Shown here one piece after another: positions 476-55,639 of a DNA stretch of 64,000 bases (position 1 is the first letter of the stretch; each line of letters opens with the position of its first letter). The DNA lies in assembly GCA_001792115.1 (NCBI GenBank), contig MGFX01000006.1, positions 146,537-210,536 on the forward strand. The letters are read 5' to 3'. The notes under the pieces were generated by a model. The model was not told the DNA's origin and searched no databases. It was given only the letters and a program-made list of their open reading frames with translations. The stretch comes from Candidatus Woesebacteria bacterium RBG_16_42_24 (GTDB lineage: Bacteria; Patescibacteriota; Microgenomatia; UBA8517). Both the position numbers and the translations under genes were made by a program.

Positions 476-548
476 TAGATCATTTATAACAGATTTCAAG
501 AACACCGCGAATTATTAATTCGCGGATGAATTGAAACTGATATGTCAT
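476..548 (-). repeat. Structured repeat element R, core copy 1 (reverse orientation), immediately 3' of the DUF2207 gene
   Basis: Reverse complement reads ATGACATATCAGTTTCAATTCATCC-hairpin(CCGCGAATTaatAATTCGCGG)-GTGTTCTTGAAATCTGTTATAAA, near-identical to 8343-8410. Confidence 0.6.
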
Positions 549-3160: not shown

Positions 3161-3178
3161 CTCGCGCAGGAAATGGGG
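3161..3178 (+). repeat. Intergenic motif family 1 copy a (CTCGCGCAGGAAATGGGG), abuts stop of the SET gene
   Basis: Core CGCGCAGGAAATGGGG read directly; followed immediately by TTA (reverse-complement stop of 3179..3679). Confidence 0.7.
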
Positions 3179-3707: not shown

Positions 3708-3728
3708 CACCCGAAGGAAATGGGCCCC
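3708..3728 (+). repeat. Intergenic motif family 1 copy b (CACCCGAAGGAAATGGGCCCC)
   Basis: Degenerate copy of the GCAGGAAATGGGGCC core, 12 nt from the stop of 3741..4070. Confidence 0.55.
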
Positions 3729-4100: not shown

Positions 4101-4132
4101 GCCCACGCAGGAAATGGTTTTGAAATTGGGGG
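4101..4132 (+). repeat. Intergenic motif family 1 copy c (GCCCACGCAGGAAATGG...GGGGGC)
   Basis: ACGCAGGAAATGG core with flanking GCCC/GGGC arms; lies in the divergent region upstream of 3741..4070 and 4228..5091. Confidence 0.55.
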
Positions 4133-5113: not shown

Positions 5114-5129
5114 CTCGCGCAGGAAACGG
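5114..5129 (+). repeat. Intergenic motif family 1 copy d (CTCGCGCAGGAAACGG)
   Basis: Between the convergent stops of 4228..5091 and 5139..5819. Confidence 0.6.
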
Positions 5130-5863: not shown

Positions 5864-5886
5864 GAGGCCGCGCAGGAAATGGGGCC
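5864..5886 (+). repeat. Intergenic motif family 1 copy e (GGAGGCCGCGCAGGAAATGGGGCC), abuts stop of 5887..6165
   Basis: Full core flanked by GGCC arms; TTA stop follows directly. Confidence 0.7.
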
Positions 5887-6211: not shown

Positions 6212-6235
6212 GTGGCCCGCGCAGGAAATGGGGCC
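6212..6235 (+). repeat. Intergenic motif family 1 copy f (GTGGCCCGCGCAGGAAATGGGGCC)
   Basis: Full core with GGCCC/GGGCC arms in the divergent region between 5887..6165 and 6263..7255. Confidence 0.7.
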
Positions 6236-7276: not shown

Positions 7277-7295
7277 CAGCGAAGGAAGTGGGACC
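7277..7295 (+). repeat. Intergenic motif family 1 copy g, degenerate (CAGCGAAGGAAGTGGGACC)
   Basis: Matches copy b (CGAAGGAAaTGGGcCC); sits 2 nt from the RidA stop. Confidence 0.45.
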
Positions 7296-7670: not shown

Positions 7671-7689
7671 TGTGTGCAGGAAGTAGGTT
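7671..7689 (+). repeat. Intergenic motif family 1 copy h, degenerate (TGTGTGCAGGAAGTAGGTT)
   Basis: 13/18 match to copy a; just 3' of the stop of 7697..8242. Confidence 0.4.
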
Positions 7690-7696
7690 CTTGTAA

Positions 7697-8242
7697 TTAT
7701 TCCAGAAGATATTCCCAGCCTGGTTGCCAAGCTTTTTTCTTTCTCCAATCCTCGGCAAAAGCTTGCTTCCAAGTTTTTCCTTTTATAAGTACATCCAAAG
7801 CCAGCTGAGGTGCTTTATGGGCAACAATGGCGACATGTTTTCCATCGTAATTTTCTTTTAAGAAATCCAAAAAATCCTGAATTCTTTTCTCAACATCTTC
7901 GTAGCTTTCACCATTGGGAAACCTTTTTGTAATATTTTCTTCTTGCTTCGGCTCGACAATCTTCGATGGTTTGCCGTTTAAATCCCCATAATTACACTCA
8001 CGTAATCTCTTATCGTAAATAATTTCAACAATCCCGCCAAAAGTGAGATTTGCTGAATCTGCCGATCTTTTCAAATCAGAACAGAAGACAACATCAAATT
8101 TCTTGCCCTTTACTTGCTTTCTCAGCTCTTTCGACTCCCGTACTCCTTTTTCAGAAAGTTCTGCATCCGACCAACCAGAAGATATCCCCGTCTCATTATC
8201 GGTAGTTGTCCCATGAACAAAATATGTAATTTTTACAGGCAT
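7697..8242 (-). CDS. Histidine phosphatase family protein (phosphoglycerate-mutase-like)
   Basis: 181 aa; N-terminal FVHGTTTDNE (RHG-like) and SDLKRS motifs. Confidence 0.6.
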   Translation of the reverse strand: MPVKITYFVHGTTTDNETGISSGWSDAELSEKGVRESKELRKQVKGKKFDVVFCSDLKRSADSANLTFGGIVEIIYDKRLRECNYGDLNGKPSKIVEPKQEENITKRFPNGESYEDVEKRIQDFLDFLKENYDGKHVAIVAHKAPQLALDVLIKGKTWKQAFAEDWRKKKAWQPGWEYLLE

Positions 8243-8261
8243 AAATAAATTTATGACATCC

Positions 8262-8412
8262 TCCGCGGACTAAAAGTCCGCGGTTTCCCTTCAAAGGAGG
8301 ATGATACTTCGACAAGCTCAGTATCATTCTGAGTATTATCGAAGAATGACATATCAGTTTCAATTCATCCCCGATTTAATCGGGGTGTTCTTGAAATCTG
8401 TTATAAACTTGA
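8262..8412 (+). repeat. Structured repeat element R, full copy 2 (nested hairpins + conserved core)
   Basis: CATCCTCC-[GCGGAC...GTCCGC]-GGAGGATG nested hairpin, then the CTTCGA...TCGAAG hairpin, then core ATGACATATCAG...CCCCGATTtaaTCGGGG...TGTTATAAA. Confidence 0.6.
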
Positions 8413-8421
8413 TTTATTCTA

Positions 8422-8450
8422 CTTCGGGGCTAATTTGAAGACAAATTATT
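8422..8450 (+). repeat. Intergenic motif family 2 copy a (CTTCGGGGCTAATTTGAAGACAAATTATT), abuts stop of the HAD gene
   Basis: Read directly; ends 1 nt before the CTA (TAG) stop of 8452..9102. Confidence 0.7.
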
Positions 8451-8451
8451 T

Positions 8452-9102
8452 CTACAATATTTTCTTAATTTCTTTTAATTCTTTAATCATTTTGAAGGCT
8501 AGTGACTCCAGCTCGGGGTGGGGATCTTTGTTGACGGCAATGCCGTAGTGAAGTTCTCGGAAAAGTGCTATGTCGCTATCACCGTCTCCGATTACGGAAC
8601 ATCTCTCTTTCTCTATATTATTTCTTGAAATAAATTCGTTAAATTGCTCAAGCTTTTTTGCCGCCTGGTCAGCATAATAATTAAGATCCACTAGGTTGCC
8701 CTCTTTATCCCAAATTAAATCTGTATTTGCATACCAGTGGGGTATACCCAGCCTTTCTGCAATGGCCTCGACATAAAGGTCAACAGATCCGGAAATTAAA
8801 CACAGTCGGTAGAACTTTTTAAGATACTCTACAATTTCAACTACATCCTTTTTAAATTTCCAAGATCTAAACATTTTTTCCATATATTTTTTATTCGCGT
8901 TTCGCGTACTTCTCCAAAGACCAATTAATTCTTTCTTTGCGTCAAGGTAAGACAACTTACCTTTTCTGAAACGTTCTTCAAATATATCAACATGGGTAGC
9001 ACGGGAAGCTCCCAACCCTTCGGTGATTTCGTACCAGGAAATGGTTTCAGTCAAAGTCCCGTCTATATCTAAAATAACTGTATCAATTTTTTCTTTTAGC
9101 AT
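8452..9102 (-). CDS. HAD-superfamily hydrolase (HAD-IB / phosphoserine-phosphatase-like)
   Basis: 216 aa; ILDIDGTLT motif I and IGDGDSDIALF motif IV. Confidence 0.75.
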   Translation of the reverse strand: MLKEKIDTVILDIDGTLTETISWYEITEGLGASRATHVDIFEERFRKGKLSYLDAKKELIGLWRSTRNANKKYMEKMFRSWKFKKDVVEIVEYLKKFYRLCLISGSVDLYVEAIAERLGIPHWYANTDLIWDKEGNLVDLNYYADQAAKKLEQFNEFISRNNIEKERCSVIGDGDSDIALFRELHYGIAVNKDPHPELESLAFKMIKELKEIKKIL

Positions 9103-9138
9103 TCTTTTTCAAAATTTTATCACGATCCTGAGTTTTAC

Positions 9139-9175
9139 CGAAGGACTCCGAAGCTACTTTGAAGACAAATTATTT
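9139..9175 (+). repeat. Intergenic motif family 2 copy b (CCGAAGGACTCCGAAGCTACTTTGAAGACAAATTATT), overlaps stop of the VOC gene
   Basis: GAAGACAAATTA runs into the TTA stop of 9170..9589. Confidence 0.7.
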
Positions 9176-9589
9176 TATGGATTCTTCGAATTTTTTGTGA
9201 GGAGAGTCCGGCTGAGCTTGGACCATTTCTAATTTATTTCCCTCTGGGTCAAAAAGAAATGCTGTAAGATTATTGTCTCGCAGTTTTAAAATTTCAGAAT
9301 CAAAAGCCACCCCCCTCCCCTCCATTTCTTTCTTGGTATTGGCTAGATCATCAACAGTGAAGCTTATGTGACGAACTCCCAGACTTTTTGTATCATCGAA
9401 GACTGGTCTTTTTTCGCCGCCTAAGCAAAGTTCTAAATATTGTCCTTCGGAGATATGAAGAAAGACTATTCTTAAAGACCCGTCGTCATTCGTAATTCGG
9501 AAAGCCTCGGTCAATCCCAATCCCCTGCAATAATAATCCAGCATCTTATCAATGTCTTTTACTCTTATAGCGACGTGTCCAAATCTCAT
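9170..9589 (-). CDS. VOC-family protein (glyoxalase/bleomycin-resistance/dioxygenase fold)
   Basis: 139 aa; MRFGHVAIRVKDIDKMLDYYCRGLGL N-terminal VOC pattern. Confidence 0.7.
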   Translation of the reverse strand: MRFGHVAIRVKDIDKMLDYYCRGLGLTEAFRITNDDGSLRIVFLHISEGQYLELCLGGEKRPVFDDTKSLGVRHISFTVDDLANTKKEMEGRGVAFDSEILKLRDNNLTAFLFDPEGNKLEMVQAQPDSPHKKFEESIK

Positions 9590-9605
9590 AGATTAATTCT
9601 AAGTT

Positions 9606-9630
9606 GGAACCGATCTCAAGACAAATTTTA
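9606..9630 (+). repeat. Intergenic motif family 2 copy c (GGAACCGATCTCAAGACAAATTTTA)
   Basis: AAGACAAATT core overlapping the TTA stop of 9628..10083. Confidence 0.55.
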
Positions 9631-10083
9631 AAATCTGCTTTCGAGCCAGAGCTTGGTGAAGAAGATTGTAAAAATTATAGAAACTACAGTGACACACTGC
9701 CAGATTATTTGGTGTATAAACCAAACAGAATCATTATGGAAAATGGAATGAAACGGAAGCTTTTCGGGCGGATTTCTGTTTATAGTGGAGAATTGCTGGT
9801 TAAACCAATAAATAGTTTCACCCAGACTTCTAACCACCCAAAAAACGGAGATAATTAGAAGGAATAAATACCAGTCGTTTAGCAAATAAGAAACCAGCGA
9901 AGAAGCAATCCAAAATGGGCCAAAAACGACCGCATCTCCCCAAGCGATAATTCCTAATAGATTAAGGTTTGGAGTAAGGCCGTAAGCGTTTTTGCGATAT
10001 TTACATTCATAATATCCCTTCACAAATACCCCAAGATTTACCAGAGCGTAGGCCCAAATAACGAGTTGCTGCCAATTCTCCAT
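9628..10083 (-). CDS. Hypothetical integral membrane protein
   Basis: 151 aa with 4 predicted hydrophobic helices; no known motif. Confidence 0.45.
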   Translation of the reverse strand: MENWQQLVIWAYALVNLGVFVKGYYECKYRKNAYGLTPNLNLLGIIAWGDAVVFGPFWIASSLVSYLLNDWYLFLLIISVFWVVRSLGETIYWFNQQFSTINRNPPEKLPFHSIFHNDSVWFIHQIIWQCVTVVSIIFTIFFTKLWLESRF

Positions 10084-10095
10084 ATCTGAATTGTA

Positions 10096-10124
10096 CCTCG
10101 GAGCTAATTTGAAGACAAATTATT
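10096..10124 (+). repeat. Intergenic motif family 2 copy d (CCTCGGAGCTAATTTGAAGACAAATTATT), abuts stop of 10123..10488
   Basis: Near-identical to copy a; ends at the TTA stop. Confidence 0.7.
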
Positions 10125-10488
10125 AAGTCTGATTTGCGGTTTCTTTATAAGCAGAAAATAAATGGTTTATAGCTTGCTTAGCCATACGTTTATCTTGAAT
10201 TAACTCCCACATAACAATAGCTCCTTGGAGACCAAGTAATAATTTGTATAATGAATACGGGACGGTCTGCGGATTACCCATTATCTCCTGTCTTGCCTGT
10301 GCCCAACTGATAGCGATTTCCCTGGGTGATATATGCTTATCCGCTATTCTTTCGACAAGGACTCTACAAACATCGTAAGGGTATCCACTAGCCAGTGAAC
10401 TATGCTTCCTGAGACGGTGCATTAACTCGCCAGAAGATGGCATATTTATTACCTCTTCCACCTCTCCGACCCTTTTTGCTTCAATCAT
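10123..10488 (-). CDS. Hypothetical protein
   Basis: 121 aa ORF without recognisable motifs. Confidence 0.4.
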   Translation of the reverse strand: MIEAKRVGEVEEVINMPSSGELMHRLRKHSSLASGYPYDVCRVLVERIADKHISPREIAISWAQARQEIMGNPQTVPYSLYKLLLGLQGAIVMWELIQDKRMAKQAINHLFSAYKETANQT

Positions 10489-10520
10489 GAAAAGAATTAT
10501 ATCACTATTTAGAGTGAATT

Positions 10521-10772
10521 CTATTTTTTGCCATCGAGACGGGCAACTGGTTTTACCCCCTTAAAAGTGCCGTTTAAAAATTGAGTTACTAGCCGGTTTA
10601 CTTTTTCTCTATATAACCAGGCGTAAGCGGAACTAAGTGTTACCTTGGATGAATGTAAAGAGCTTCCGGAAATTAGACGTACATCTTCAACGGTAGGATG
10701 GATACCTCTTTTTATGGTTTGGACAACCAAAATAATATCATCTCGAGATGGTAAATGACTTCTCTCGTGCAT
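10521..10772 (-). CDS. Hypothetical protein (start moved to internal ATG, MHERSHLP...)
   Basis: ORF track begins at a TTG; an in-frame ATG at 10770-10772 is the more plausible start. Confidence 0.35.
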   Translation of the reverse strand: MHERSHLPSRDDIILVVQTIKRGIHPTVEDVRLISGSSLHSSKVTLSSAYAWLYREKVNRLVTQFLNGTFKGVKPVARLDGKK

Positions 10773-10799
10773 AATTTTTGCGGGCAATGGCTAATTCTA

Positions 10800-10828
10800 C
10801 TCCGAAGCTAATTTGAAGACAATAATTT
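10800..10828 (+). repeat. Intergenic motif family 2 copy e (CTCCGAAGCTAATTTGAAGACAATAATTT)
   Basis: In the divergent region between 10521..10787 and 10903..11595. Confidence 0.65.
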
Positions 10829-10902
10829 AGCTTAAGTCTAAAATTGGTTAAGTAGGCTTCACTAGACATTTAACAATCTAAGGTAAATAATTGCTCTGAA
10901 AT

Positions 10903-11595
10903 ATGGAACTAAAAATACACGATTTTCAATTATCAATTCTGCGGGAGCTTCTTTTTAGACCCAACGCGCGCTTTCGGGATTTAAAGAAAGTAGATATTAC
11001 GAATGACCACTTTACTTTTCATTTAAAACAGCTGGTTAAGGAAGGATTGGTTATAAAACAAAACAAGGTTTACAGTCTTACAGACGAAGGAAAAGAGTTT
11101 GCAAATAGAATGGATACTGAGGCACTTAGGATTGAGAGACAGGGGAAAATAGCAGTCGGGCTTCATGCGGTAAGACTTAGAAATGGTAAGACGGAACACC
11201 TTGTACATCAAAGGCTTAAAGAACCCTTTTATGGCTGGTACGGATCCCAGAGCGGAAAAGTAAGGTGGGGAGAAAATCCTTTGGACTGCGCTAAAAGAGA
11301 ATTTAGAGAGGAAACCGGGCTTACAGGAAAATTTACACTTAAGGGAATTGTTCACTACCACCACTTTCATCAAGACGGAAGGTTGCTTGAAGATAAATAT
11401 TTTTGGATTTATAAGGTGGAAAACACAAAGGGAGATTTTATGGAAGAGGTCCCAGAGGGTAAAAATATATGGATAAGTGAGGCCAAATATCGAAAACTGA
11501 AAAACGTTTTTGCAACTTTTGACGAAGTTCGCGAGGTATTAAATAGTAAAAAGCTACTTTATTTAGATAGAGCAAGATTTGTTAAGAGCTACTAA
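10903..11595 (+). CDS. Winged-helix / NUDIX hydrolase fusion protein
   Basis: 230 aa; Nudix box GKVRWGENPLDCAKREFREETGL (GX5EX7REUXEEXGU); N-terminal HTH-like region. Confidence 0.7.
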   Translation: MELKIHDFQLSILRELLFRPNARFRDLKKVDITNDHFTFHLKQLVKEGLVIKQNKVYSLTDEGKEFANRMDTEALRIERQGKIAVGLHAVRLRNGKTEHLVHQRLKEPFYGWYGSQSGKVRWGENPLDCAKREFREETGLTGKFTLKGIVHYHHFHQDGRLLEDKYFWIYKVENTKGDFMEEVPEGKNIWISEAKYRKLKNVFATFDEVREVLNSKKLLYLDRARFVKSY

Positions 11596-11624
11596 AAAGC
11601 TCTCGGTGAGGTTTTAGGTCTTTT

Positions 11625-11650
11625 CCCCGAAGCTACTTTGAGGACAACCC
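11625..11650 (+). repeat. Intergenic motif family 2 copy f, degenerate (CCCCGAAGCTACTTTGAGGACAACCC)
   Basis: CCGAAGCTACTTTGA-GGACAA matches copy b; abuts the CTA stop of hppA. Confidence 0.55.
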
Positions 11651-13890
11651 TAGCTGGTGACCGAGACTCGGTATTTTTTGCTCTGCCAGATTCCCCAGAC
11701 GAAAATCGCGATAAGAACGGCAATTGCCACTTTTGCCCCAAAAGTTCCGTGGTACTGGACGATAACCGGCGCGGCAATAAGGCTGACCAGGTTCACAACT
11801 TTAATCATAGGGTTAAGCGCAGGTCCGGCAGTATCCTTTAGTGGATCCCCTACCGTATCTCCCTCAACCGAAGCCTTGTGGGCGTCAGATCCCTTACCTC
11901 CAAAGTGGCCGTCCTCGATAAACTTCTTGGCATTATCGAGTGCGCCTCCGGCAACAGACATATAAACTGCTAAAAGTTGTCCCGTGAGTATTACTCCCGC
12001 AAGAAATGCTCCCAAAGCCTCAACTTCGAAAATAAGTCCCACAAGCAGTGGCAGGGAAACCGAAATAGCCACCAAACTTATTAAGTCTTTTTGGGCTGCG
12101 GCGGTTGTGATACTCACAACCTTTTCGTATTCGGGAGTTTTGGTCCCTTCCATTACCCCAGGAACCTTAAACTGTTTTCTTACTTCTTCAACCACCTTAA
12201 TGGCTGCTCTTGCAACAGCCTTAATGGCAATTGCGGCAAAAAGAAGGGGCAAGGCTCCCCCCAGCAAAAATCCAATTACGGTTGGAAGAGAAGAAATTCG
12301 AATTGATTCAAGAACCTGAACTCCTATTCTTTCCTGTACGATCCCCACGTCTGTTATGAATGAAAAGAAAAGGGCGGTTGCCGCAATAACCGCGGAAGCA
12401 ATTGCCAGCTGTTTGGTTATCGCTTTGGTGGTATTTCCAACAGAGTCCAAGTCCGCCATTATTTTTGCTGCGCTTTCGGGAACCCCAGCCATCTCCCCTA
12501 TTCCGTTGGCATTATCTGCAATTGGTCCGAATGCATCCATCGCTACGTTATTTCCGGTCAGGGACAACATTCCAATTCCGATCATCGCTACCCCGTATAA
12601 CATGTAAATGGGCGGCATTCCCCAGTAGATAAGAAGGCTTGAGGCAAGGGCCGCGCAAATTACGAATACGCTCCAGACCGAAGATTCCATACCAACCCCG
12701 AGACCCGAAAGGATTGTGGTTGCACTTCCGGTTTTGGTTGACTCCGCAATCTCAAGAACGGGCCGCCTCTTGTAAGAAGTGAAGTAAGAGGTAAGAGGAT
12801 TAAATGCAACCGCCAGGGCGATTCCGACGGCATTAAGAAGAGCTAGTTTCCACTCCCCCGCATAAAACATTGCAAAGGCAAAAGCCGAAAGAACCGTAAA
12901 AACACTTGAGAGTTCATAGCTTCTAAACATGGCTTCTTCCGCGTCTTTAGCACGCAGCCATTTCGCTGGAAATTTTTCCCAAATGGGAACGGCTAGCGTT
13001 CCGATGATTGAGGAAACAACTCCAATTGCGCGGACCACTAAGGGGTAAACTATCCAGAAAGACTGACCCGTTAAGTGATAAAGAACAAGCCCTAAAATTA
13101 AAGAAGAAACAATTGTTACTTCGTAAGACTCGAAGATATCGGCTGCCATTCCGGCGCAGTCCCCGACGTTATCCCCGACAAGGTCTGCTACAACCCCCGC
13201 ATTTCTCGGATCATCCTCGGGTAAGTTTTTCTCGACTTTACCCACAAGGTCTGCTCCCATGTCAGCGGCCTTGGTATAAATTCCTCCCCCTATTCTCATA
13301 AAAAGGGCAACGAGTGTTCCTCCGAAACCAAAACCCAGAAGTGCGTCGGGCGCAGCTTTGCCAAAAACCATAAATATAATTGTTCCCCCGAGAAGCCCGA
13401 GTCCGTCCGTAAGCATTCCGGTAAATGTTCCCGCCCTGTAGGCTGTAGTTAAGGCGCCGTTATAATCCCCTTTTACTGCCTTTGCGGTGACCCTCACATT
13501 TCCCTCAATGGCAACCCTCATTCCGAGTTGTCCGACAAGAGTGGAGAAAGTTGCACCAACAATAAAGGCGATAGTTCGGCCTAAAGCGACTATCAAAGTT
13601 GCATTGTCGCCAAATCTGGCAACTGCTTCGCTAGACGGCGGAACAACGTAGACGCTTAAGAAGAGGATCACAATTAATGCAAGAAGCACAAGAGTAATTG
13701 TTTTTAGTTGTTTTCTAAGGTACCCCTCCGCTCCCCGCTTAATAGCTTTCCAGACGGTTTGCATTTTTTCGGTGCCCTTATCCTCTGAAGAAGTTTTCTT
13801 CCAAAGCCAGAGGGCATAGATAAGGGCCGAAAAGGCAACGCCTATTACTCCCCAAATCATCATTTGCTCAAAAGCGGCTAATTCATTCAT
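11650..13890 (-). CDS. hppA: Membrane-bound K+-dependent H+/Na+-translocating pyrophosphatase
   Basis: 746 aa; multiple TM helices; GDNVGDCAGMAADIFESYEV and DLVGKVE motifs diagnostic of V-type PPases. Confidence 0.93.
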   Translation of the reverse strand: MNELAAFEQMMIWGVIGVAFSALIYALWLWKKTSSEDKGTEKMQTVWKAIKRGAEGYLRKQLKTITLVLLALIVILFLSVYVVPPSSEAVARFGDNATLIVALGRTIAFIVGATFSTLVGQLGMRVAIEGNVRVTAKAVKGDYNGALTTAYRAGTFTGMLTDGLGLLGGTIIFMVFGKAAPDALLGFGFGGTLVALFMRIGGGIYTKAADMGADLVGKVEKNLPEDDPRNAGVVADLVGDNVGDCAGMAADIFESYEVTIVSSLILGLVLYHLTGQSFWIVYPLVVRAIGVVSSIIGTLAVPIWEKFPAKWLRAKDAEEAMFRSYELSSVFTVLSAFAFAMFYAGEWKLALLNAVGIALAVAFNPLTSYFTSYKRRPVLEIAESTKTGSATTILSGLGVGMESSVWSVFVICAALASSLLIYWGMPPIYMLYGVAMIGIGMLSLTGNNVAMDAFGPIADNANGIGEMAGVPESAAKIMADLDSVGNTTKAITKQLAIASAVIAATALFFSFITDVGIVQERIGVQVLESIRISSLPTVIGFLLGGALPLLFAAIAIKAVARAAIKVVEEVRKQFKVPGVMEGTKTPEYEKVVSITTAAAQKDLISLVAISVSLPLLVGLIFEVEALGAFLAGVILTGQLLAVYMSVAGGALDNAKKFIEDGHFGGKGSDAHKASVEGDTVGDPLKDTAGPALNPMIKVVNLVSLIAAPVIVQYHGTFGAKVAIAVLIAIFVWGIWQSKKYRVSVTS

Positions 13891-15196: not shown

Positions 15197-17197
<2,001 letters not shown>

Positions 17198-25959: not shown

Positions 25960-25987
25960 AAACTCAAAACTCAAAACTCAAAACTCA
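25960..25987 (+). repeat. Heptanucleotide tandem repeat (AAACTCA)x4 directly after the stop of 25470..25958
   Basis: Four perfect units read directly. Confidence 0.9.
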
Positions 25988-25996
25988 AAATTATTT

Positions 25997-26017
25997 GGAA
26001 ACTGGAAACTGGAAACT
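25997..26017 (+). repeat. Heptanucleotide tandem repeat (GGAAACT)x3 upstream of / in frame with the 26039 pilin-like gene
   Basis: ggaaact x3 followed by ggaaatt; in-frame translation gives WKLETGN, as in the 24385 leader. Confidence 0.9.
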
Positions 26018-26038
26018 GGAAATTCCTCGCGAAGCGAG

Positions 26039-26467
26039 GTGGGTCAGTCTCTTTTTGAGGTAATTGTAGCCATCGGAGTTATCGCAGCAGTCATTGTGGG
26101 GGTTGTCGTTTTGGCCACGAATTCAATAAGAAATACTACTTTTACGCGAAATAATTCATTAGCAACCCGCTATGCCCAAGAGGCCATTGAGTGGTTGAGA
26201 GGAGAAAGGGACGCAGACTGGGCTACTTTTCGGGCTAATGCAGGGGTTTCCGGTAATAAGTATTGCCTCGATGCCCTTAACTGGACAAAGCCTCAAGCCT
26301 GTAATGCTACCGAAGTAATAAGCGATACTATACTTACCAGAAGTGTAACGTTTTCCAATATTCTTGCGACCCAAGTTAATGCTAACGTCACGGTCTCCTG
26401 GAACGATTCCCAAGGGGCGCACCAGGTGGCAACCAGCACTGTATACACCGATTGGAGGTCGAGGTAA
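26039..26467 (+). CDS. Pilin-like protein (GspI/PilV-like); apparent GTG start, may start upstream
   Basis: 142 aa; G/QSLFEVIVAIGVIAAV prepilin-type N-terminus; no upstream in-frame ATG. Confidence 0.6.
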   Translation: MGQSLFEVIVAIGVIAAVIVGVVVLATNSIRNTTFTRNNSLATRYAQEAIEWLRGERDADWATFRANAGVSGNKYCLDALNWTKPQACNATEVISDTILTRSVTFSNILATQVNANVTVSWNDSQGAHQVATSTVYTDWRSR

Positions 26468-54276: not shown

Positions 54277-54391
54277 AAATCGGTTTATCGGTTTCTCGGT
54301 TATCAGATATCGGTGGATCGGCTTGTCAGATTACAAAATCCGAAAATCCGAAAAACTGAAATCAGAAGACTGATGACCTGACAAACTGAAT

Positions 54392-55639
54392 ATGTTGGCT
54401 TTCAATCCCAAACCCTCAACCATAATGCACCTGGACCTTAATTCCTGTTTTGCGACGATTGAGCAACAGGCAAATCCGCAGCTTCGGGGCAAACCCATCG
54501 CGGTTGCCGCCTACACCACCCCATCCGGTTGCATCATTGCCCCTTCGGTTGAGGCCAAAAGATATGGGATCAAGGTCGGAATGAGGGTCAAAGACGGCAA
54601 ACTTCTCTATCCAGGCTTGATAGTTCTTTCTCCCGACCCATGGAAATATAGAAACGTACACCTTGCCCTTCGAAGAATCGTTTCCGATTATACCGACAAA
54701 TTTGTGCCGAAGAGTATTGATGAATTCGTTTTAGACCTAGAAGGATACCCCTGTTTAGTAGCAAGTAGTATGCAGCAAGTAGCAAGGGAGATTAAGGAGA
54801 GAATCAAGGAGGAGATCGGAGAATGGCTGACGGTTTCAGTGGGAATTGCCCCAAACAAATTTCTTGCCAAAACTGCAGCCTCCCTCCATAAACCCGACGG
54901 GTTGGATGAGATTGATAAAGAAAACTTTGCCAAAGTTTATTCGGGCCTTAAACTTACGGAGCTATGTGGGATAAAACTTCGAAACGCAGTTCGGCTAAAC
55001 AACATGGGCATATTTAGCGTTTTGGATTTCTTCGAGGCACCATATCCTAAGCTGAAGGCTGCCTTTGAATCGATCCTTGGATACTATTGGTATTTGCGCT
55101 TGCGAGGTTGGGAAATAGACGACGTTGTTTTTGGCAGACGCTCATATGGCAATTCTTTCGCCCTGCCTAGGCCATTAGTAACAGTTGAAGAGCTCTCTCC
55201 TGTTCTTTCTAAACTCGTTCAAAAAATGGGAGCAAGATTTAGGCGGGCTGGATATAAAGCCAAAGGAGTTCATTTGGCAATCGCCTACCGGGACGGAACA
55301 TTTTGGCACCAGGGAGTTACAACCACAAGAATCTTATTCGACAGCAGGGACATTTATAGAGTCGCATTTAGACTTCTTAATCGAAGTCCCTATAGAAAAG
55401 CTGTCAGGGAGCTCGCCGTATCGGTTTTTAACTTGATAGATGAGCCGTCTTTGCAGCTTGAACTATTTGACGACCTAAGGAAAAAGGAGCGAATAGTGAA
55501 TGCGGTCGATGCCGTAAATGAACGCTGGGGAGACTTTGTCATAACTCCAGCTCGCATGCTTGGAACTAAAAATGCCGTAATTGACAGAATCGCCTTTGGC
55601 GGAGTCAAGGAACTCGAGGAATTTACCCTTCGATATTAG
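54392..55639 (+). CDS. dinB: Y-family DNA polymerase IV
   Basis: 415 aa; MHLDLNSCFATIE (UmuC motif I), SVGIAPNKFLAK. Confidence 0.85.
   Translation: MLAFNPKPSTIMHLDLNSCFATIEQQANPQLRGKPIAVAAYTTPSGCIIAPSVEAKRYGIKVGMRVKDGKLLYPGLIVLSPDPWKYRNVHLALRRIVSDYTDKFVPKSIDEFVLDLEGYPCLVASSMQQVAREIKERIKEEIGEWLTVSVGIAPNKFLAKTAASLHKPDGLDEIDKENFAKVYSGLKLTELCGIKLRNAVRLNNMGIFSVLDFFEAPYPKLKAAFESILGYYWYLRLRGWEIDDVVFGRRSYGNSFALPRPLVTVEELSPVLSKLVQKMGARFRRAGYKAKGVHLAIAYRDGTFWHQGVTTTRILFDSRDIYRVAFRLLNRSPYRKAVRELAVSVFNLIDEPSLQLELFDDLRKKERIVNAVDAVNERWGDFVITPARMLGTKNAVIDRIAFGGVKELEEFTLRY

Follow-up and report, generated by a model that had tools for sequence, protein, structure and literature searches.

How accessory genes are acquired and brought to expression in bacteria of the candidate phyla radiation (CPR), whose genomes are tiny, is a process of which little is known. 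The question is raised by an array of small genes in a 64,000-nt stretch of the genome of Candidatus Woesebacteria bacterium RBG_16_42_24 (assembly GCA_001792115.1, contig MGFX01000006.1; hereafter the window), which begins at the stop codon of the H+-pyrophosphatase gene hppA, is located between gyrB and gyrA, and carries copies of a short oriented repeat at its gene boundaries. An initial annotation had described this repeat as gene punctuation; the oriented boundary element and the cassette-like variability both stand, while the predicted promoter role had been missed because the motif was read on the non-coding strand. The gene strand of the array is the minus strand, on which the repeat is read below, coordinates being those of the plus strand of the window. 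The name M is used for the family of 27-33-nt repeats carried by the six window copies. We propose, with a probability of roughly 60%, that M bounds, with fixed polarity, the units of a hypervariable Candidatus Woesebacteria accessory-gene array and acts as a partial promoter and as a joint for unit exchange.

Repeat M and the polarity of its arrays

The window copies of M read aaTAATTTGTCTTCAAATTAGCYYCGRRG on the gene strand and the family consensus is aaaT-AATTTGTCTTCAAATTAGC-TYCGGAG, in which 7-nt inverted arms (TAATTTG and CAAATTA) flank an asymmetric centre (TCTT). Searching with the 22-mer GCTAATTTGAAGACAAATTATT at up to three mismatches returned three sites in the window and none in 100 shuffles, and a weight matrix trained on M copies from the window and other genomes returned five, all on the minus strand and all between 8.4 and 11.65 kb; the rest of the window (~60 kb) and 10 shuffles gave none. 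The sixth copy (c), which is degenerate, comes in addition to the five sites of the matrix. All six annotated copies were found where they had been reported, and the 64-kb window holds no further one; five of them (a, b, c, d and f) lie at, or a few nucleotides from, the stop codon of the upstream minus-strand gene, as had been noted, and the gap that had been listed as free of the motif (10489-10520, 32 nt) is indeed free of it.

Public genomes and metagenomes were also scanned, the resulting loci being labelled L###. When one genome per species was scanned with TTGTCTTCAAANTAGCYYCGRRG, matches came from four Candidatus Woesebacteria genomes, one Patescibacteria metagenome-assembled genome (MAG) and two MAGs labelled as Gammaproteobacteria, most copies being followed by TAGAAT, TAAAAT or TAATAT and an unrelated gene's start codon; with a looser pattern these loci yielded many more copies, up to eight per 8 kb. 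A metagenome scan with the 19-nt core returned 97 loci. The total amounted to 271 copies at no more than three mismatches, 199 of them non-redundant and mostly from Candidatus Woesebacteria, with unrelated flanks and unrelated downstream genes, and across these 199 copies the information content drops to zero beyond positions -4 and +31. Two of the loci (L012 and L016; CAYNFU010000052.1 and CAYSZS010000007.1) stem from MAGs labelled 'uncultured Gammaproteobacteria' that carry the Woesebacteria motif, and the 3' end of hppA in L012 is the same as in L042 and L056; to judge by their sequences, the two contigs are probably of CPR origin and were binned or labelled wrongly.

None of the 75 loci with at least two copies of M carries them on both strands. 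Within the array spans 35 of 171 open reading frames (ORFs), or approximately 20%, are reversed. M occurs at 95 of the 139 tandem junctions inside arrays, while those lacking it have a median gap of 1.5 nt and are therefore regarded as operonic pairs, for example of toxin-antitoxin genes. M is also present at convergent (26/32) and divergent (23/31) junctions inside arrays and at nine of 16 junctions between two reversed genes, six of these nine being clean on inspection; when whole loci are counted, each junction type is occupied at 26-40%. A promoter or terminator tied to a particular gene would not be expected at such rates at convergent junctions or between two reversed genes. On these sequence counts, M marks the boundaries of units regardless of the direction of the flanking genes and always points in the direction of the array.

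M is, furthermore, largely excluded from genes: of 219 copies, only six fall within ORFs of 100 aa or more, though such ORFs cover 69% of the bases, and the abundance within ORFs that the initial annotation had named as evidence against a punctuating role is not seen. A DNA uptake sequence was rejected on the basis of this exclusion, of the confinement of M to arrays and of the uniform orientation of its copies.

Since most copies abut the stop codon of a co-oriented gene, and M is found at most convergent junctions, a 3'-end RNA element of the upstream gene (a terminator or stabilising hairpin) may be considered. The hairpin is, however, weak (-3.5 kcal/mol), AU-rich and devoid of a U-tract, and compensatory changes are absent from its seven arm pairs. 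Divergent junctions are equally occupied despite having no upstream co-oriented gene, M also lies between reversed genes, and an Rfam scan of the whole window matched four tRNAs only, with no match in the gaps. We consider a 3'-end element highly improbable; an intrinsic terminator, with its GC-rich stem and U-tract, was rejected outright on the fold and the lack of compensatory variation.

Equally little credence is given to M as a self-spreading selfish miniature repeat, of the repetitive extragenic palindrome (REP/REPIN) or miniature inverted-repeat transposable element (MITE) kind. M resembles these in being short, partly palindromic, extragenic and multi-copy, yet its copies are clustered in arrays with none in the ~60 kb of window backbone, inverted pairs were never found, M is absent from viral contigs, and, the flank information being zero, neither terminal inverted repeats nor target duplications extend past the 30-nt element. 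A REP/REPIN or MITE identity was rejected on the clustering, the uniform orientation, the exclusion from ORFs and the lack of inverted pairs, no search aimed at a RAYT gene having been made, and a phage origin was rejected as the M core has no match in the IMG/VR viral contigs.

The arrays are mosaics of units that break at M. All ORFs were clustered into families and the loci read as strings of M-bounded units, M-to-M spacing having a median of 675 nt (interquartile range 522-841). Unit order varies between loci and species: a reversed MFS gene is followed by four different first units, and the NUDIX family F0 is preceded by at least seven different neighbouring units. The conservation of gene order across relatives that would have spoken against cassettes is not observed, the order being cassette-like with breaks at M. 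In all-against-all blastn comparisons, the first positions of homology blocks cluster at M index -5 to +4 and the last ones at index 15-34; as judged from these alignments, the blocks common to different genomes begin and end at M. Additionally, upstream stop codons are fused to the left arm of M with a last base at +1 (21 cases) or -3 (13 cases), and the joints are therefore precise to the nucleotide. Locating the exchange point within M by means of arm variants was dropped, as promoter-plus-gene and site-specific models predict the same linkage.

Promoter geometry and predicted leaderless gene starts

Four of the six window copies (a, c, d and e) present TTGTCT, a 17-nt spacer and TAGAAT or TACAAT, and a generic promoter-consensus scan independently listed this minus-strand arrangement at 8444, 9624, 10118 and 10822; it also listed TTGCAA, 17 nt and TAGAAT upstream of hppA, and TTGCCC, 17 nt and TAGAAT in the gap lacking M. 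Copies a-e sit just upstream of the start of a co-oriented gene, which copy f does not, and 6 nt separate the -10 element from the start codon in copies c and d, as they do from the TTG start in copy e.

In the 199 non-redundant copies of the family, -10-like hexamers peak at core index 26, corresponding to the 17-nt spacer (60 copies), over a background of approximately five copies at each other offset. A second peak at index 37 (24 copies) lies 11 nt from the first and 17 nt after a second -35-like hexamer, TTAGCT, its -10 elements being mostly TGn-extended (e.g. ...GAAATCGTGGTAAAAT). Start codons peak at index 38-39, i.e. 6-7 nt past the -10. About one quarter of the family copies have no downstream co-oriented gene. 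This phasing shows M to supply a predicted -35 of sigma-70 type (TTGTCT) and a fixed 17-nt spacer, to which the following unit would bring its own -10 (TAGAAT or TAAAAT); it likewise shows a second register, in which the TTAGCT of M would be the -35 of a TGn-extended -10. The distance of 6-7 nt between -10 and start codon implies that each unit would yield a leaderless mRNA. Leaderless gene starts appear to be widespread in this genome, to go by the window as a whole, where a -10-like hexamer (TAnAAT type) starts 11-14 nt upstream of the start codon in 15 of 71 genes, often with a TGn extension and without a Shine-Dalgarno sequence.

Strict -35/-10 phasing and leaderless starts would also be found if M were only a propagated ('mobile') or regulon promoter travelling with its downstream gene, the mosaicism then reflecting ordinary gene gain and loss and the gene-less copies being relics. 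Orthologous genes retain M, -10 and ATG behind different upstream neighbours, as exemplified by the 151-aa gene of the window, whose orthologue in L056, L074 and L100 keeps M, the -10, the 6 nt and ATGGAGAATTGGCAG, and an identical promoter before unrelated genes is a known phenomenon (PMC3488235). None of the 35 reversed array genes, however, has M in its own orientation, and no locus is mixed-strand; occupancy at convergent and reversed-tandem junctions is about equal to that at junctions with a downstream gene, and the M cores found there are mostly exact, unlike decaying relics. Moreover, the spacer (index 9-18) is conserved as strongly as the -35 (index 3-8), while the -10 columns, which lie outside the search pattern, hold far less information. 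A promoter travelling with its gene is regarded as doubtful, if the least unlikely of the alternatives. Even this more conservative explanation would yield a sequence-derived Woesebacteria promoter consensus (TTGTCT, 17 nt, TAnAAT, 6-7 nt, start codon), evidence suggestive of widespread leaderless expression, and, in AATTTGTCTTCAAATTAGC, a sequence tag for locating accessory-gene arrays in metagenomes.

The arms of M might, alternatively, form the operator of a dimeric regulator binding TAATTTG-N4-CAAATTA, overlapping the -35 (centre at approximately -30.5) or near -41.5, and serving co-regulation or roadblock insulation. The 7-4-7 inverted repeat is near-perfect (six of its seven arm positions pair in 173-197 of the 199 copies), the two -10 registers are separated by about one helical turn, and helix-turn-helix genes are present at the array (wHTH-NUDIX, 10903-11595, and, beside hppA, one of the Trp-repressor family). 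Yet a symmetric site needs no polarity, whereas the TCTT centre and the 3' flank GCTYCGGAG always point one way; the centre is conserved at least as much as the arms, no candidate regulator co-occurs with the arrays across loci, and the two -35-like hexamers within M explain the two registers equally well. An operator is accordingly judged improbable.

Proposed exchange of units and content of the array

If M is a boundary repeat and joint, as we propose, units of one or two genes would be inserted, lost or exchanged at M by one of two routes: a site-specific recombinase acting on a site with symmetric arms and an asymmetric centre, or short-homology recombination between ~30-nt M copies after DNA uptake. 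A captured unit starting with a -10 and an ATG would gain a complete promoter on joining M. The core sites of tyrosine recombinases have symmetric arms around an asymmetric centre, and M may be parsed as 11-6-11 (aaATAATTT-GTCTTC-AAATTAGCTYC), its centre and right arm being most conserved, although this is a parse only. Were M a recombination site, the polarity of the arrays would follow from the invariant, asymmetric centre TCTT. A wider proposal, which we put forward tentatively and consider possible rather than probable, is that Woesebacteria, and perhaps other CPR bacteria, possess integron-independent cassette capture, in which a ~28-nt polar site would be recombined by an Xer-like or other recombinase or by short-homology exchange after uptake. 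M would then double as -35 and spacer, captured units beginning with a -10 and a start codon would be expressed leaderless at once, and the second repeat of these arrays (family 1, below) would be a second site type.

Several observations weigh against the role of M as both joint and partial promoter. No recombinase adjoins any array in ~690 kb of loci: tblastn and phmmer with the Xer protein against all of these loci found no tyrosine recombinase homologue, and a Pfam scan of 130 larger array-locus proteins found no recombinase among families with at least two members, a lone recombinase being possible among the single-member families, which were covered in part. The nearest tyrosine recombinase is of ordinary Xer type and lies after gyrA, ~4 kb beyond the array (318 aa; L119 14487-15443), reaching 250 bits with models of XerC/XerD and 126 bits with that of the integron integrase (cut-off 265). 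Within the population no ongoing shuffling was seen, as all the sequence that the near-identical strain contigs L001-L004 and L006 have for 8200-11700 is 100% identical to the window (copy c falls in an assembly gap of L001, and L006 stops short of the end of this interval) and the other strain contigs have the same gene order; exchange is therefore not frequent on the timescale of the sampled population. With respect to the promoter, only ~42% of M copies have an in-register -10, and the 8-nt insertions in copies b and f break the -35/-10 register. Finally, ORFs were called by a crude longest-ORF rule, such that some junction types are probably mis-assigned, and the loci are short, so that the polarity described covers locus spans rather than whole genomes.

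The individual copies and the genes that they bound are listed in Table 1.

Table 1. Features of the M array and of its surroundings in the window (plus-strand coordinates; M read on the minus strand)
Feature	Position	Strand	Description
Copy a	8416-8450	-	AATAATTTGTCTTCAAATTAGCCCCGAAG-TAGAAT; core AATTTGTCTTCAAATTAGC; -35 TTGTCT at 8444-8439; 17-nt spacer; -10 TAGAAT at 8421-8416
Copy b	9132-9174	-	Intact core; 8-nt insertion TCCTTCGG after ...GCTTCGGAG; next -10-like hexamer TAAAAC at 25-nt spacing
Extended -10 downstream of copy b	9114-9122	-	TGATAAAAT; sequence reading
Copy c	9596-9629	-	Degenerate, AAAATTTGTCTTGAGATCGGTTCCAACT-TAGAAT; AATTTGTCTT, 17-nt spacing and TAGAAT kept; right arm of core lost; VOC ATG at 9589
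Copy d	10090-10124	-	TTGTCT, 17 nt, TACAAT, 6 nt, then ATG of 151-aa gene (10083)
Junction without M, within a two-gene unit	10496-10546	-	TTGCCC, 17 nt, TAGAAT (10546-10518) and TGATATAAT (10504-10496), upstream of 121-aa gene
Copy e	10794-10828	-	Divergent gap, upstream co-oriented gene absent; TTGTCT, 17 nt, TAGAAT; possible starts TTG (10787), 6 nt after -10, or ATG (10772), 21 nt after
Copy f	11611-11650	-	First site of the array; abuts hppA stop codon TAG; degenerate (TTGTCC, AAAG, 8-nt insertion); then 3' end of reversed wHTH-NUDIX gene, no co-oriented gene served
His_Phos	7697-8242	-	M-bounded unit
HAD	8452-9102	-	M-bounded unit
VOC	9170-9589	-	M-bounded unit
151-aa protein	9628-10083	-	M-bounded unit
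121-aa and 88-aa pair	10123-10787	-	M-bounded unit
wHTH-NUDIX	10903-11595	+	M-bounded unit, reversed
hppA	11650-13890	-	H+-pyrophosphatase; conserved anchor gene, array begins after it
Family 1 copies	3163-3176, 3708-3725, 4104-4117, 5116-5129, 5869-5882, 6218-6231, 7278-7295, 7672-7690		Second punctuation repeat

Across loci the cargo comprises NUDIX, SET, His_Phos, HIT, SRPBCC, MFS and GDSL proteins and many type II toxin-antitoxin pairs (Gp49/HTH_3, DUF4258/CopG, DUF433/DUF5615 and BrnT/BrnA), to which the window adds HAD, VOC and wHTH-NUDIX. According to Pfam, the genes bracketed in the initial annotation are HAD, VOC/glyoxalase, the 151-aa and two more proteins without a Pfam match, wHTH-NUDIX and H+-PPase. 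Some two-M units hold frameshifted or truncated genes (L018 1871-2363, L043 3855-4171 and L067 383-992), including a NUDIX gene split into ORFs of 54 and 68 aa and a broken Gp49/HTH_3 pair; decaying cassettes therefore remain bounded by intact M cores.

At one end the arrays are anchored by hppA, which is co-oriented with M in all six hppA-bearing loci and, in L012, L042 and L056 as in the window, has the first M directly at its stop codon; at the far end, NAGPA and DUF2207 genes are common to loci. The interval between gyrB (15197-17161) and gyrA (just outside the window, past its left edge at position 1) holds ~18 kb of accessory genes, including two arrays, hppA and the Trp-repressor-family gene beside it. 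The GC content of the array is 0.39-0.40, against 0.43-0.455 in the adjacent pilus/housekeeping region, and the composition check that had been suggested accordingly places the array 4-5% below the backbone. Type IV pilus genes are also encoded in the window. Contigs of a groundwater CPR bacterium (GCA_001792155.1) and many metagenome contigs carry the region in identical form. In GCA_001792155.1 a run of N falls exactly at copy c (L001 10460-10478), which is why its VOC protein is annotated with 138 aa rather than 139 aa.

At copy b, the TAA of the left arm is the stop codon of the VOC gene, and what had been taken for a duplicated half of this copy corresponds to the 8-nt insertion, a variant that L011 shares. 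The working promoter of the HAD gene is likely the extended -10 further downstream (Table 1). Copy a is predicted to drive a leader containing a structured repeat, R, followed by the His_Phos gene. Repeat R occurs at 481-548 (+) and, in opposite orientation, at ~8331-8400 (-), near the switch between the two repeat families as previously remarked, with sequence continuing to 8243, and forms a GC hairpin between part-complementary arms. The His_Phos leader in L022, L039 and L077 measures only ~23 nt (TAGAAT aagtcaagtttataaattcattt ATG); the ~180 nt that separate the -10 of copy a from the ATG of His_Phos in the window therefore appear to be a MITE-like or structured element inserted into the 5' leader.

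Family 1, by which these arrays are punctuated in addition to M, has the gene-strand sequence aGAACCCATTTCCTsCGCGGgttc and is also present in L013, L014, L016, L040, L050, L061, L101 and others. In M-bearing loci 47 copies of family 1 are co-oriented with M and three are opposite, shuffles giving none, and family 1 is mostly an alternative to M at a junction, both being found at only seven. The view that the two families mark adjacent blocks of independent origins is not sustained by this co-occurrence in the same arrays of many Woesebacteria, and both families therefore look native to the lineage. They had also been called identical in behaviour, which holds in so far as both punctuate; family 1 differs in that its distance to a -10 varies (among the window copies read) and in its bias towards the 3' side of co-oriented genes. 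A 6-bp stem in family 1 is unsupported, being paired in 66.7% of cells, a value reached by 60 of 500 shuffles.

Elsewhere in the window, short tandem repeats precede two ORFs, namely AAACTCA (four times) then GGAAACT (three times) at ~25960-26038 before the ORF at 26039, and repeats of the AAAATCCG type at ~54300-54391 before the ORF at 54392.

Comparison with known systems

The arrays bear several resemblances to sedentary chromosomal integrons and to clusters of attC sites lacking integron-integrases (CALINs): they consist of units of one to two genes of ~0.5-0.85 kb, the repeat always has the same orientation with ~80% of genes co-oriented and the rest reversed within their unit, toxin-antitoxin pairs and enzymes of the NUDIX, VOC and acetyltransferase types abound in the cargo, unit content varies among relatives with breaks at the repeat, and the first site lies beside a fixed anchor. 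In contrast, M is a conserved sequence of 27-33 nt, whereas attC is a structured site of 57-141 nt with R''/L''-L'/R' (R boxes GTTRRRY); no integron integrase was found and the host is a CPR bacterium; and as every M carries its own -35, the units are not promoterless. Identity with attC was rejected because conservation spans ~35 contiguous nt (-4 to +31), the sole palindrome is 7-4-7 and the consensus contains no GTTRRRY, and integron membership because no IntI occurs in the ~690 kb of loci and the attC architecture is missing. Searches of the literature gave no relevant full-text match to the motif strings and no paper combining Patescibacteria, leaderless and promoter, while the titles and abstracts of papers joining integron, candidate phyla radiation and attC concern other topics.

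With regard to site anatomy, the dif (pdif) modules of Acinetobacter plasmids and the tandems of integrative mobile elements exploiting Xer (IMEX) at dif share with M a ~28-nt site with part-symmetric arms and an asymmetric centre. Adjacent pdif sites point in alternating directions, whereas those of M are direct throughout (0/75 loci mixed-strand) and the M arrays are chromosomal. M resembles these systems further in bounding small accessory modules, including toxin-antitoxin pairs, in a genome that encodes an Xer-type recombinase. Two reports describe pdif and IMEX sites as short sequences that bound small accessory modules, toxin-antitoxin pairs included, which are shuffled between replicons (PMC6449649, PMC13141974).

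In its expression signals M is comparable to putative mobile promoters, defined as at least 50 nt at no less than 80% identity upstream of coding sequences that are not homologous (PMC3488235). Both place a near-identical promoter before non-homologous genes, within and between genomes; unlike those promoters, M is conserved over ~27-36 nt only, has array-level polarity and is present at junctions without a downstream gene. The ends of insertion sequences (IS) can carry an outward -35 that forms a hybrid promoter with a resident -10. Here too one partner would give the -35 and the other the -10, the promoter arising only at the joint; unlike an IS end, M is a 30-nt repeat without a transposase or element body.

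On the proposed reading, a conserved 30-nt element is predicted to organise a hypervariable array of toxin-antitoxin and small-enzyme genes, setting its polarity and offering ready-made expression signals. If M is indeed a recombination site, it would represent a second, independently evolved answer to the integron problem of gene capture and expression, with a design unlike that of the integron in that the promoter would be split across the recombination joint. M departs from the integron, dif/pdif, propagated-promoter and IS-end systems in features that define each of them; by analogy, its closest counterpart in layout and cargo is an integron or attC cluster, in site anatomy dif/pdif, and in its putative expression logic the propagated promoter together with the IS-end hybrid promoter.

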